Part shown: one piece after another, positions 691-2,933 of the stretch | Position numbering within the stretch: position 1 is the stretch's first letter | Layout of the letters: each line of letters starts with the position of its first letter | Source: Dermatophilaceae bacterium | GTDB lineage: Bacteria; Actinomycetota; Actinomycetes; Actinomycetales; Dermatophilaceae | Assembly: GCA_051645525.1 (NCBI GenBank) | Contig: JBOFBK010000518.1 | Span: forward strand, 4,013 to 68,012 | Direction: 5' to 3' | DNA length: 64,000 bases | Program-made: the position numbers and the translations under genes | The notes under the pieces: generated by a model | The model's database searches: none | What the model was told of the DNA's origin: nothing | Seen by the model: the letters and a program-made list of their open reading frames with translations, nothing else

Positions 691-1437
691 ATGGCGGACC
701 CGATGGAACGGCTGCTCGACATCCGCGACGACATCGATCGCACGATGCAGAGCTACGAGGCTGCTGCTGCGGCACGCACCGACGTCGAGGGGTCTGACGC
801 GTCGGGCGCGGTCACGGTCCGCGTTGGACGCACCGGCATTCTCGAGTCGGTGCGTATCCGGGCCGACTGGAGCAGGCGGATCACACCGGACCAGCTCGGC
901 AGCGCGGTGACCGCCGCCGTCGGCGACGCGGCCGCCCGCTCAGGCCTGGTGTGGGGTGACGCGCTCGCCGAGTCACTCGACGCTCCCCGGCCCACAACGC
1001 GTCCGCTTCCCTCGGTCGACGGCAGTCTCGCCGCGGGGCTCAGCGACGTGGCCGACCCGCAGCGACTGGTCGAGCACGAGCGAGCGTCGCTCGAGGCGAT
1101 GGCCGAAGTGCTGGGGCGCATGCTCAGCGAGATCGACATGGTCGCCGACGAGGTCGAGGCCATCGGGCGTCGGCACGTCGTCGGCGTCGCCGATGGTGGC
1201 GACATCCGAGTCGTTCTGTCCGGTGCGGGCGGCTTTGTGCGGGTCGAGATCGCCGAGGCCGCTGCGCGCCACCATGCCGCCAACCTCTGCAGACTCGTCA
1301 AGCTCGCCTACGACGATGCCGTGCGCCAGGTCGGCGACAGCCCGGTCGACGAGGTCATCGAACGCTCGGTGTTCGGCGAGCTCCGCAGAATCGGCTCCGA
1401 CCCGGCTGCCGTCGTCCAGCGGTTCTCCGCGATCTGA
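691..1437 (+). CDS. tandem YbaB/EbfC-like domain protein (EspL-like, T7SS-associated type)
   Basis: Two YbaB-like segments: SGAVTVRVGRTGILESVRIRADW...LGSAVTAAVGDA and GGDIRVVLSGAGGFVRVEIAE...LCRLVKLAYDDAVRQ. RBS GAGAGAGGA lies 4 nt before the ATG. Confidence 0.65.
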   Translation: MADPMERLLDIRDDIDRTMQSYEAAAAARTDVEGSDASGAVTVRVGRTGILESVRIRADWSRRITPDQLGSAVTAAVGDAAARSGLVWGDALAESLDAPRPTTRPLPSVDGSLAAGLSDVADPQRLVEHERASLEAMAEVLGRMLSEIDMVADEVEAIGRRHVVGVADGGDIRVVLSGAGGFVRVEIAEAAARHHAANLCRLVKLAYDDAVRQVGDSPVDEVIERSVFGELRRIGSDPAAVVQRFSAI

Positions 1438-1461
1438 CCAGAACGACGAAGGAGACAGGTC

Positions 1462-1779
1462 ATGGGTTTCGAAGCACAGCTCCAGGCGCTCGCGGACGAT
1501 GCAGCGGTATGGGACCGCGTGGCCACCACGCTCTCAGGCGCGAGCTCGAGTGCGGCAGGGAGGGCGCTCCACGTGGCTGAGCTCTCGTGGGCGGGAGAGG
1601 TGACGGGCCTGGTCAGCACGTACGAGAGCATCCGCGCGAAGGTCGAGCGACTGCTCAAGGAAGGGTCCACCGAGACCGGCACGATCTCCGACGGGCTGAT
1701 CACGGTCAAGCAGACCTACGAGGGAACCGACGCAGCGGCGCAGGCGGAGCTACAGTCCGCCTGGCGTCCCAAGGAGTGA
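1462..1779 (+). CDS. small alpha-helical WXG100/EspC-like protein (type VII secretion target-like)
   Basis: 105 aa with a predicted helix-turn-helix hairpin character (LQALADDAAVWDRVATTL ... ISDGLITVKQTYEGTDAAAQAEL). RBS GAAGGAGA. Sits between the YbaB-like and WXG-motif genes. Confidence 0.5.
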   Translation: MGFEAQLQALADDAAVWDRVATTLSGASSSAAGRALHVAELSWAGEVTGLVSTYESIRAKVERLLKEGSTETGTISDGLITVKQTYEGTDAAAQAELQSAWRPKE

Positions 1780-1790
1780 GGTAAGGACAC

Positions 1791-2507
1791 ATGGACGACT
1801 TGGTGCACCAGATCATCGATCTGGTCGAGCGGATCAAGGCGAAGCTCGACAAGCTCCTCGGCGTGGTCAACCGCTTCCTCAGCTGGGTTCCGTGGGGGCT
1901 CGGCTGGCTGGCCGACCGGATCAAGGACGCCTGGGACGGGATGTGCGCGAAGTTCGCGGAGTTCTGGGATGCCGTGACGTTCATTTTCGGCAACCTGGGT
2001 GACCGTGGGGCGCTCTCCCGCACAGCACTCGCGTGGTCCTCGGACGTGAGCGGTCCGGTGAGCGCCCAGAAGGACGCCGTCGACGCGACGGCAGTGCTGG
2101 CAGCAGATGACACATGGCGAGGCTCCGCCGCAGGCGCGTACGCAGGGAAGGCGAAGCTCCATCAGACTGCTCTCGAGAAGGTGATCACGACGTACGTGCA
2201 GTCGATCAGCGCCTCCCTCGACACCGTCCGGGCCGGGCTGACGAAGTTCTACATGGGCCTCATCACGGCGCTCGGTGCTCTCGTCGTGGGCCTCATCGCG
2301 GCGTTGGCGTCCTCCGCGACCGTCTTCGGTATCCCGGCCGGCATCCTCATCGCGGGTGGCGCGGCGCTGGTCGCCGTCGGCGCCTTCTACACCGGAGGTG
2401 AGCTGTTGAAGAGCGACTGCTCCACGGCGATGAACACCCTGCAGCAGAAGCTCAACGACAACAACGGTTTCCCCGATGCTGCATGGCCGTCCGGCGCGGT
2501 GCTCTGA
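1791..2507 (+). CDS. WXG-motif protein with C-terminal Gly/Ala-rich double transmembrane (glycine-zipper-like) region
   Basis: W-x-G motif DDTWRGSAAGAYAGKAKLHQTALEKV, followed by MGLITALGALVVGLIAALASSATVFGIPAGILIAGGAALVAVGAFYTGG. RBS GGTAAGGA. Confidence 0.6.
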   Translation: MDDLVHQIIDLVERIKAKLDKLLGVVNRFLSWVPWGLGWLADRIKDAWDGMCAKFAEFWDAVTFIFGNLGDRGALSRTALAWSSDVSGPVSAQKDAVDATAVLAADDTWRGSAAGAYAGKAKLHQTALEKVITTYVQSISASLDTVRAGLTKFYMGLITALGALVVGLIAALASSATVFGIPAGILIAGGAALVAVGAFYTGGELLKSDCSTAMNTLQQKLNDNNGFPDAAWPSGAVL

Positions 2508-2510
2508 GCC

Positions 2511-2933
2511 ATGGCAGGCTCGTCACGTCGGCGGGAGGCGGCTCGGGCCGCCGCGGCGGTCGTCCTCGCCGCCGCCGGGGGAGCGGTGGCGCTGATGGCG
2601 CCTGACGCCGTCGGCGCGACGGAGACCAGCGCCGTCGGCACCGTCTGGACCGTGGGGGCGTGGGCGGGGGTGGTGGCGGCGGCGCTCGTCGTGGTCGACG
2701 CATCGTTCGGTGCGGCCGGTCGTCCCGCACGAGCGTTCTCGACCGCTGCGGTCGTCCTGGGGTGGGCGGCTGTGCTGTGGCTCGTCCTCGGCGGCCTGTT
2801 CGCCGTCATCGACGGGGCAGCGGCCGATGCAGCGGTCGGAGTCGGCTTCATCGTGGCGATTCCTGCGGCGGGCGCAGTGGTCCTGGCTCTCATGAGCCCC
2901 GCCCGACGCTCGCCGGTCGCCGCATCGTCCTGA
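2511..2933 (+). CDS. small polytopic membrane protein (about 4 TM)
   Basis: Four hydrophobic Ala/Val/Gly-rich segments. The ATG is 3 nt after the stop of the previous gene. High GC3. Confidence 0.55.
   Translation: MAGSSRRREAARAAAAVVLAAAGGAVALMAPDAVGATETSAVGTVWTVGAWAGVVAAALVVVDASFGAAGRPARAFSTAAVVLGWAAVLWLVLGGLFAVIDGAAADAAVGVGFIVAIPAAGAVVLALMSPARRSPVAASS

Follow-up and report, generated by a model that had tools for sequence, protein, structure and literature searches.

A compact cassette of four genes was characterized in a 64,000-nucleotide stretch of the contig JBOFBK010000518.1 (assembly GCA_051645525.1, a Dermatophilaceae bacterium), hereafter the window. The cassette is very probably associated with an ESX-type secretion system of type VII (T7SS), known as T7SSa. 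This link is well supported by four independent lines: the logic of the export signals (a YxxxD/E motif in one protein and WxG in its neighbour), physical linkage to secretion genes in Knoellia pratensis, co-occurrence with the machinery in the same assemblies, and a palindrome common to the cassette and an esxAB-like operon. They bear out the T7SS-related module of the original prediction, which had been made from the letters of the window. The four genes may form a single operon for a T7SSa substrate set, comprising EspD-, EspC- and EspA-like proteins and an additional membrane partner, although this proposal, taken as a full chain, has a little less than an even chance of being right.

The cassette and its proteins

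The four genes are separated by spacers of 24, 11 and 3 nt (Table 1). Co-directional open reading frames (ORFs) of 248, 105, 238 and 140 amino acids had been predicted on the plus strand, and all four were recovered with exactly the same boundaries. Their GC content at third codon positions (GC3) is 0.82-0.87, and first positions are richer than second ones (GC1>GC2), which is the pattern of real genes; the window as a whole is high-GC DNA (66-79%). Shine-Dalgarno sequences precede genes 1, 2 and 3. Gene 4 starts 3 nt past the stop codon of gene 3, and therefore translational coupling between these two genes is suggested. A scan for consensus promoters and terminators gave no match. Among 54 non-redundant genome and metagenome loci carrying gene 3, the order gene 1-gene 2-gene 3 is found in 36, the other 18 being mostly short contigs. 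In Planosporangium, where gene 3 shares about 25% identity and no more with the window protein, the cassette is nevertheless the same. The surroundings differ from host to host: the cassette stands beside hem and purB genes in Actinotalea, among sugar-transport and esterase genes in Plantactinospora, and between pnp and dapB in a Phycicoccus-type genome. This synteny indicates that the four genes are a conserved unit and not a chance arrangement. The ratio of nonsynonymous to synonymous substitutions (dN/dS) is 0.08-0.54 across the cassette genes tested (0.18-0.43 for gene 4), which is the signature of purifying selection. By curated thresholds, only gene 1 belongs to a named family (YbaB).

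In the known T7SSa pairs, YxxxD/E lies just past the hairpin of the small partner (EsxB, PE, EspC) and WxG lies in the other partner (PMC6109436, PMC6107294). Gene 2 is a candidate bearer of the first signal, with the motif Y86-E-G-T-D90 near its C-terminus. Conservation reaches at least 90% for both Y86 and E87 in alignments of 20-21 homologues; of 21 rows, 18 have D or E at position 90 and three have N, with TYEGTD, NYELNE and AYESND among the variants. A turn of the form LSWA(G/A) is also kept; the G of WxG is present here in the window protein but not across the family. Nine of 20 relatives match the EspC profile (PF10824) at E<=0.1, the best at 2.4e-4, and the gene 2 neighbour in locus L037 is weakly flagged by the same profile. 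Very weak matches in the PDB align Y86 with segment 56-95 of EspB.

The second motif is carried by gene 3. Its W-x-G motif (TWRGSAAGAY), already pointed out in the original prediction, is present and close to invariant: of 115 diverse family members, 110 keep W109 and 114 keep G111, and G70, W82, Y117, Q124, A127, L143 and W232-P233 are near-invariant in them as well. An AlphaFold2 model built on a 33-sequence alignment, with a predicted local distance difference test score (pLDDT) of 75.6, places helices at 3-32, 35-66, 72-96, 99-105, 112-174 and 180-221. The WxG motif falls in the loop 106-111, between the helices 99-105 and 112-174, as in the helix-turn-helix of WXG100 proteins. Four parts can be distinguished: an N-terminal helical hairpin (3-66), a WXG100-like hairpin (72-150), a membrane hairpin (153-203), and a C-terminal tail that holds W232-P233. 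The WXG100 profile (PF06013) is matched at E<=0.01 by 57 of the 115 members (best 3.9e-7) and EspA_EspE (PF18879) by 32 (best 1.4e-5), in both cases below threshold. The family profile gives weak, register-consistent PDB matches to EsxB, MAB_3112 and SAG1039 at residues 78-156. By its motif, gene 3 can be placed in the WXG100 superfamily.

An exhaustive profile search yielded 867 cluster representatives of gene 3 (50% identity) at E<=0.001, nearly all of 230-270 amino acids and matching over the full length. These are labelled 'hypothetical protein' by their sources, and gene 3 represents a large unnamed family. Its lineages include Phycicoccus, Knoellia, Actinotalea, Nocardioides, Actinoplanes, Salinispora, and metagenome-assembled genomes (MAGs) of a Kineosporiaceae and a Pseudonocardiales bacterium. 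The N-terminal extension of the member P0172 was considered as a fusion of genes 2 and 3 and rejected; it is an unrelated repeat region.

A Gly/Ala-rich pair of transmembrane (TM) helices with GxxxG/A spacing had been predicted at the C-terminus of gene 3. The two hydrophobic helices and the small-xxx-small spacing stood up to analysis; the pattern is not a canonical GxxxGxxxG. Residues 153-176 and 181-203 have mean Kyte-Doolittle values of 1.96 and 1.61, contain 46-52% Gly, Ala and Ser, and are connected by a short conserved turn (T177 and G180-x-P182). Small residues are kept across the 115 members at positions 156/160/167/171 and 180/184/188/191/198/202. Spaced by 3-4 residues, they line one face of each helix as a stripe in which Ala is commoner than Gly, and therefore the hairpin may fairly be called 'glycine-zipper-like' and not canonical. 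Glycine-zipper toxins have a membrane-active C-terminal region with repeated small-xxx-small motifs, and gene 3 resembles them in this respect with a looser motif.

Gene 1 is the first gene of the cassette in every case and precedes the pair formed by genes 2 and 3. The two tandem YbaB/EbfC-like domains ascribed to it were confirmed: YbaB_DNA_bd of Pfam (PF02575) is matched with 47.6 bits (cut-off 25.5) in two stretches, the best being residues 27-83, and NCBIfam places the second domain at 143-216. Weak PDB matches to 1pug and 1j8b cover residues 155-221. A Pro-rich linker connects the two modules, and the family alignment shows a conserved 'DP.ALA' motif at the C-terminus. Classical YbaB/EbfC proteins are homodimeric, nucleoid-associated DNA binders of about 100 amino acids, whereas gene 1 has 248 residues, two domains per chain, and an acidic isoelectric point (pI) of 4.8. 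The proposed chaperones EspD, EspH and EspL are predicted to have a YbaB-like fold and lie in operons with Esp-type substrate pairs. Gene 1 has YbaB-like domains and the same kind of neighbours, and by this analogy it is a candidate chaperone of their type. In Actinoplanes sp. KI2, a 196-aa ORF (P0037; locus L030, 9620-10294) is made of a YbaB-like domain followed directly by two elements of the gene 3 family, the membrane hairpin and the WP tail. It comes without gene 2 and without a WXG domain, and a 4-TM ORF still follows. This ORF could be either a deletion derivative or a natural fusion hinting that the YbaB domain and the hairpin act together.

Gene 4 was described as a polytopic membrane protein of 140 amino acids, and it does contain four hydrophobic segments, with charged loops that fit a topology with both termini inside and a pI of 11.2. 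In most loci, an ORF of 137-176 amino acids with four TM segments comes next after gene 3, and frequently overlaps the stop codon of the latter. Homology to gene 4 is recognisable by sequence only in the Intrasporangiaceae/Dermatophilaceae clade; an iterated hidden Markov model did not reach past close relatives, and no Pfam family was found for gene 4 or for 16 positional analogues. One gene of this type was present per locus in about 54 loci, with no tandem copies, and none was present in T7SS loci. A metagenome scan with gene 4 patterns found no orphan copies in the limited sequence searched, which does not allow orphans to be assessed properly.

Linkage to the secretion machinery and a common palindrome

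The closest association with secretion genes is found in K. pratensis. Here, the cassette and its upstream palindrome lie directly 3' of genes for a mycosin-like subtilase (mycP), eccD and eccC, and EccC has 1322 amino acids and three FtsK/SpoIIIE domains. The whole cassette stands between eccC and an acyltransferase gene (L009, 8817-11138). In Knoellia sp. Soil729 (L038, 13969-14057) and in Phycicoccus, eccC abuts the same acyltransferase gene with no cassette between them, and therefore the four genes move as a unit. The sequences indicate that cassette and palindrome relocate together between species of one genus.

In Phycicoccus sp. GCA_035325325.1, the gene 3 homologue HMM93774.1 and the EccCa protein HMM93839.1 are encoded on one 303-kb contig, 65 accession numbers apart, and the T7SS locus comprises MycP, EccB, two EccD, two WXG100 genes and EccC. 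In Actinotalea GCA_014525465.1, cassette and EccC occur in the same assembly. A T7SSa machine thus shares the genome with the cassette in all three cases: adjacent in K. pratensis, on the same contig in Phycicoccus, and in the same assembly in Actinotalea. The linked components, EccB, EccC, EccD and MycP, are those of T7SSa and not of T7SSb. EccCa orthologues are common in Dermatophilaceae MAGs. The original prediction depended on a T7SS in the genome; one is present in these relatives, and for the MAG of the window itself it is probable from the closeness of accession numbers. A protein record from a Dermatophilaceae MAG (P0001, MGL4177781.1) is 100% identical to the window protein of gene 3. 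Its accession number differs by 1699 from that of an EccCa protein of a Dermatophilaceae MAG (MGL4176082.1), which suggests, and does not prove, that both come from the same MAG.

No ecc genes were found among ten large ORFs tested in the window, in agreement with the earlier statement that ecc/ESX core genes are missing from it. An FtsK/SpoIIIE protein of the window (Table 1) was considered as EccC, but its single motor domain and its alpha and gamma domains of the FtsK type show it to be a true FtsK. In the T7SSa loci of Phycicoccus (L034, 4816-8281) and Knoellia (L038, 4520-8134), eccD and mycP are each present twice. Two conserved genes without Pfam match also lie between the esx pair and eccC, and encode proteins of 179-190 and 468-515 amino acids.

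The window has two copies of a 16-bp palindromic pattern, GGGGASNNSTCCCCAT, i.e. GGGGA(G/C)NN(G/C)TCCCCAT, at 538-553 and 3212-3227, where 0.01 occurrences are expected. The pattern was found once in each of 16 fetched loci and nowhere else in them. In 13 of these, its place is shortly upstream of gene 1, at about 75-140 nt from the start codon in the cases with a clear start. In the other three, which are Phycicoccus L033 and L034 (one identical sequence) and Knoellia sp. Soil729 L038, it lies in the intergenic region between eccD and esx, and the first WXG100 gene is 136 nt (Knoellia) or about 215 nt (Phycicoccus) downstream of it. This placement before both gene 1 and the esx pair therefore points to a common operator or promoter element, and would put the cassette in the esx regulon of the clade. 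The palindrome is thus a candidate operator or promoter element of both the cassette and the esxAB-like operon. No SigM-type -35 element (GGAAC) was found in promoter position upstream of gene 1.

The second copy of the palindrome belongs to an exact repeat of the 20-mer GGGGACCGCTCCCCATCGAC, which flanks the cassette and a small ORF. This conserved ORF of 44-45 amino acids (VKNTNTPGRLGLTLRWVPVDLADGRIRMEMRWV...) has a homologue in L004 (8545-8682, minus strand). Upstream of it, two direct repeats of 11 nt resemble the PHO boxes of PhoP, with GTTCAC/GTTCAT on the minus strand in the window and GTTCACC-N4-GTTCACC in relatives. The region 3100-3231 of the window has a homologous counterpart that, in relatives, lies upstream of the cassette. 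Small ORF, repeats and palindrome thus stand upstream of the cassette in relatives and downstream here, which therefore suggests a local duplication or rearrangement in this lineage, and the second palindrome is probably a trace of it. The ORF of 162 amino acids upstream of the cassette has a strong coding signal (GC3 0.91). It gave no Pfam or NCBIfam match and no homologue in the fetched loci; relatives carry pnp and small ORFs at this place.

Table 1. Features of the window, with the identity of the encoded proteins to those of close relatives
Feature	Position	Strand	Description	Identity to window protein
ORF of 162 aa	4-492	+	upstream of the cassette	
Palindromic cis-element GGGGACCGCTCCCCAT(CGAC)	538-557	+	about 140 nt upstream of gene 1; candidate operator/promoter element	
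Gene 1	691-1437	+	248 aa; tandem YbaB/EbfC-like domains; candidate EspD/EspH/EspL-type chaperone	51-62%
Gene 2	1462-1779	+	105 aa; EspC-like small partner; candidate carrier of the YxxxD/E export motif	52-62%
Gene 3	1791-2507	+	238 aa; WXG protein with Gly/Ala-rich two-helix membrane hairpin near the C-terminus	71-77%
Gene 4	2511-2933	+	140 aa; basic, 4 TM; candidate membrane partner or immunity protein	47-58%
ORF of 44-45 aa	2948-3082	-	conserved small ORF	
PHO-box-like repeats	3140-3162	-	two 11-nt direct repeats	
Second copy of the 20-mer	3212-3231	+	downstream of the cassette, upstream of dapB; 20 nt identical to 538-557 (direct repeat)	
dapB			adjacent gene, as reference	77-83%
Nitrate assimilation cluster	4538-12775	+	ordinary cluster	
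FtsK/SpoIIIE protein	29696-32467		true FtsK	
recA	50588-53125	+	split by an intein	

Known systems and competing explanations

Several known systems resemble the cassette, the closest being the Esp trios of ESX-1 and the operons of the ESX-4 regulon in mycobacteria. The YbaB-like proteins EspD, EspH and EspL have been proposed as chaperones that stabilise the substrate pairs EspA/EspC and EspE/EspF (PMC6107294, PMC6109436), with EspD as the dedicated chaperone of EspA/EspC (PMC6109436, PMC6107294). The cassette is like EspA-EspC-EspD and EspE-EspF-EspH (with EspL) in uniting three such roles within one operon. Gene 2 parallels EspC in its length of about 100 amino acids and its YxxxD/E motif, and gene 3 parallels EspA as the larger WxG partner. 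The WxG regions are very similar, TWRGSAAGAYAGK in gene 3 (W-R-G-S-A-A-G-A-Y-A-G-K) and GWLGSAADKYAGK in EspA (W-L-G-S-A-A-D-K-Y-A-G-K), and a Gly/Ala-rich hydrophobic stretch lies at a collinear position in both when aligned with hhalign. Differences are nevertheless clear. The chaperone gene comes first in the cassette and last in the mycobacterial Esp operons, and a 248-aa tandem YbaB protein is unlike those of the ESX-1 set. Compared with EspA, the 238-aa gene 3 protein is without the long C-terminal region, and possesses an additional hairpin at the N-terminus, a clean TM hairpin of two helices, and a WP tail. A 4-TM gene is added to the trio, and the hosts are non-mycobacterial soil Actinomycetota. 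By analogy, the cassette would work like an EspD/EspC/EspA set, although membership in the EspA/EspE or EspC families is not established, the scores being below the cut-offs.

A similar organization has been described in Mycobacterium abscessus, where the SigM/ESX-4 regulon includes unlinked operons in which a YbaB/EspL-like gene comes first, a small uncharacterised protein second, and a larger putative substrate third, with a promoter element in common with esxUT (PMC13491425). Mab_2773c-2772c-2771c is like the cassette in gene order, in its distance from the esx locus and in the promoter element common with the esx pair. The element itself differs, being the palindrome GGGGAGnnCTCCCC in the cassette and the SigM -35 sequence GGAACCG in M. 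abscessus, and the operon as described has no 4-TM partner (PMC13491425).

The original prediction had filed the cassette with firmicute LXG toxin loci, in particular TspA/TsaI. TspA/TsaI, EsxX/ExiAB/ExiCD and TelE do share with it an N-terminal targeting domain of the WXG superfamily, small helical helpers, a Gly-rich membrane-active C-terminal region, and a polytopic membrane protein nearby. EsxX is a glycine-zipper toxin whose zipper is buried by the cytoplasmic heterodimer ExiAB, and which is countered outside by the polytopic membrane immunity proteins ExiCD (PMC12744356); it is thus also like the cassette in having a cytoplasmic binder that hides the zipper. In contrast to these firmicute T7SSb toxins, the cassette has an Ala-rich stripe and is linked to T7SSa machinery, and only one of the 115 gene 3 members matches LXG (PF04740; E=0.0045), the window protein giving no match. 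The filing could not be maintained: the cassette is not an LXG locus, as judged from these profiles and the linked machinery, and the EspD/H/L-EspC-EspA and ESX-4/SigM operons fit it better. The classical WXG100 proteins EsxA and EsxB have, like gene 3, a WxG turn between two helices followed by an 'AA..Y' motif, and half of the gene 3 members match PF06013; WXG100 proteins have about 100 residues, and gene 3 has 238 in four parts and is predicted to be membrane-anchored. No paper on the cassette or the gene 3 family was found in the literature. In its sequence, the cassette is set apart by the tandem-YbaB candidate chaperone, the WXG protein with its putative hairpin anchor, the coupled 4-TM partner, and the palindrome common with esx genes.

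These parallels suggest the following mechanism. The operon would be switched on together with the esxAB-like genes through the 16-bp palindrome. Gene 2 (Y86xxxD90) and the WXG domain of gene 3 (W109xG111) would pair as a helical bundle and present a two-part export signal to EccC. Gene 1, resembling a covalent dimer of the EspL/EspD type, would stabilise this pair in the cytoplasm and probably cover the hairpin of gene 3. After export, the Gly/Ala-rich hairpin might enter a membrane and self-associate through its small-residue faces, producing a leak or pore, and gene 4 in the membrane of the producer could dock or neutralise it. For the proposed actions of gene 1, the hairpin and gene 4, EsxX with ExiAB and ExiCD offers a functional precedent. 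The target membrane may be either that of a competitor or that of the producer.

A number of observations weigh against the cassette as an exported Esp-like set. The scores of the window proteins fall short of curated thresholds: gene 2 reaches 12.7 bits against EspC (E=0.18; gathering score 23.5), and gene 3 reaches 12.8 bits against WXG100 (cut-off 27.3) and 20.1 bits against EspA_EspE (E=8.5e-4; cut-off 27), the latter over residues 96-132 only. Gene 3 also exceeds the typical WXG100 length. A comparison of gene 3 family alignments with nine EspA sequences by hhalign gave P=3e-4 and a probability of only 38-40%, for residues 69-221 of gene 3 and 26-170 of EspA; the Rv3616c sequence used to retrieve EspA was 99% identical to a 1031-member cluster and also matched named EspA entries. 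PDB sequences matched by the gene 3 profile are mostly coiled-coil noise, with WXG100 entries only at E 0.006-0.04, and a Foldseek search of the PDB with the gene 3 model returned generic helical bundles, none at E<=0.001. For gene 2, the predicted length of 105 amino acids holds, and the predicted helical hairpin remains unconfirmed by a poor single-sequence AlphaFold2 model (pLDDT 46). In EspC-type proteins, YxxxD/E follows the second helix of a hairpin of about 100 amino acids; the motif is present in gene 2, and the helix boundary is unconfirmed in this model. Only one of about 54 gene 3 loci physically adjoins ecc genes. The palindrome is limited to one clade, distant clades having other palindromes or none that were detected. 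Finally, the hairpin of gene 3 is hydrophobic enough to enter the producer's own membrane without export.

This last property is the starting point of an explanation without secretion, which is quite improbable. Genes 3 and 4 would form a non-exported complex in the inner membrane, such as a holin-like device, a leak triggered by stress, or a complex that regulates the T7SS ATPase, with genes 1 and 2 as cytoplasmic regulators. A hairpin near the C-terminus would suit direct insertion, and the small-residue faces of two TM helices, together with a charged tail, recall features of holins. Gene 1 might then be a DNA-binding protein that recognises the palindrome, as YbaB/EbfC proteins are DNA binders and a palindrome suits a dimeric or pseudo-dimeric one, but gene 1 is strongly acidic. 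The pairing of YxxxD/E with WxG, the EspC and WXG100 matches, and the adjacency to eccC are hard to explain without export. Models of defence systems (PADLOC) did not match the cassette.

If the pair is exported, its role could be directed at the producer or at competitors. It is possible, though this can only be held tentatively, that genes 2 and 3 work in the producer's own envelope as an Esp-like accessory (an EsxAB-like export aid, a conduit, or a surface or signalling structure), with gene 4 as assembly partner. Gene 3 is constrained like a housekeeping gene, with identities close to those of dapB (Table 1) and dN/dS of 0.08-0.24. It is a single-copy gene of the core chromosome, in the context pnp ... 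dapB in several genomes of the clade, and had no match in plasmid and phage collections. Its C-termini are not polymorphic across the family, where all matches are full length. The cis-element common with the esx operon is what would be expected of a part of the same machine, and the secretion of EspA/EspC and EsxA/EsxB is co-dependent (PMC6109436). On the other hand, the cassette is missing from the T7SS loci of Knoellia sp. Soil729 and Phycicoccus and is therefore not a fixed part of the locus, and its 4-TM partner differs so much between clades that it is no longer recognisable, which would be uncommon in a structural subunit. Mycobacterial EsxE and EsxF, which form pores, offer a parallel for such a role; the bacteria considered here, however, are not known to possess a mycolic outer membrane for which a conduit would be required.

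An interbacterial toxin and its immunity protein are an unlikely explanation, and correspond to the competitor-directed case of the mechanism above. Gene 3 would be a depolarising toxin of the TspA/EsxX/TelE kind, gene 4 would confer immunity, and genes 1 and 2 would help in export. A polytopic gene directly 3' that overlaps the stop codon and evolves faster than gene 3 looks like a toxin-immunity pair. The Gly/Ala-rich C-terminal hairpin with its conserved small-xxx-small spacing and the linkage to a T7SS also agree with this role, and a cytoplasmic helper could mask the hairpin as ExiAB does for EsxX. Against a weapon, gene 3 is about as conserved as dapB, single-copy and chromosomal, although conserved toxins also exist. 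There is no LXG domain and no T7SSb machinery, and the literature search found no precedent for an antibacterial T7SSa toxin. For tsaI and esaG, strings of immunity paralogues are reported (PMC9484751). Polymorphism and immunity arrays of this kind were not seen for the cassette, nor were tandem or orphan copies of gene 4 in the limited sequence searched. The analogy with TspA/TsaI thus captures the layout, and several tested features misfit a polymorphic weapon. With conservation speaking against a toxin and a coupled, fast-diverging membrane gene speaking for it, both roles of an exported pair are therefore retained. The most far-reaching version is doubtful: an ancient, Actinomycetota-wide, T7SSa-delivered effector that depolarises membranes, with its own immunity protein, a zipper hidden by the tandem-YbaB protein, and a palindromic operator common with esx.

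Rest of the window and biological meaning

The remainder of the window is core chromosome, with dapB, a nitrate/nitrite assimilation cluster, RNase J, the true FtsK, Lhr, RecA and MiaB/RimO. In the nitrate cluster, NirB was confirmed by Pfam, and a NarK-type transporter, a molybdopterin nitrate reductase and NirD were recognised by reading the translations. The recA gene is a single ORF of 845 amino acids with RecA, RecA_C, Intein_splicing and LAGLIDADG_3 homing-endonuclease domains in Pfam.

Almost all knowledge about Esp-type substrates and YbaB-like chaperones comes from ESX-1 of pathogenic mycobacteria, and the cargo of ancestral ESX-4-like systems in ordinary soil actinobacteria is largely unknown. 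The cassette is a compact and widespread candidate answer to this question; its candidate parts include a recognisable export signal, a chaperone of its own and a terminus that acts on membranes. As a system of four genes whose hosts include cultured non-pathogens, it bears on how YbaB-like chaperones handle hydrophobic T7SS cargo, on whether membrane toxins occur in T7SSa systems, as in those of the T7SSb type, and on which regulator ties substrates to esx genes through a common palindrome. The cassette is not surprising in kind, and would gain much in importance if the membrane-toxin explanation were true. As a depolarising effector, it would be the first antibacterial effector class of an ESX-type system outside pathogens, and it would point to the ancestral job of EspA/EspC/EspD-type proteins.

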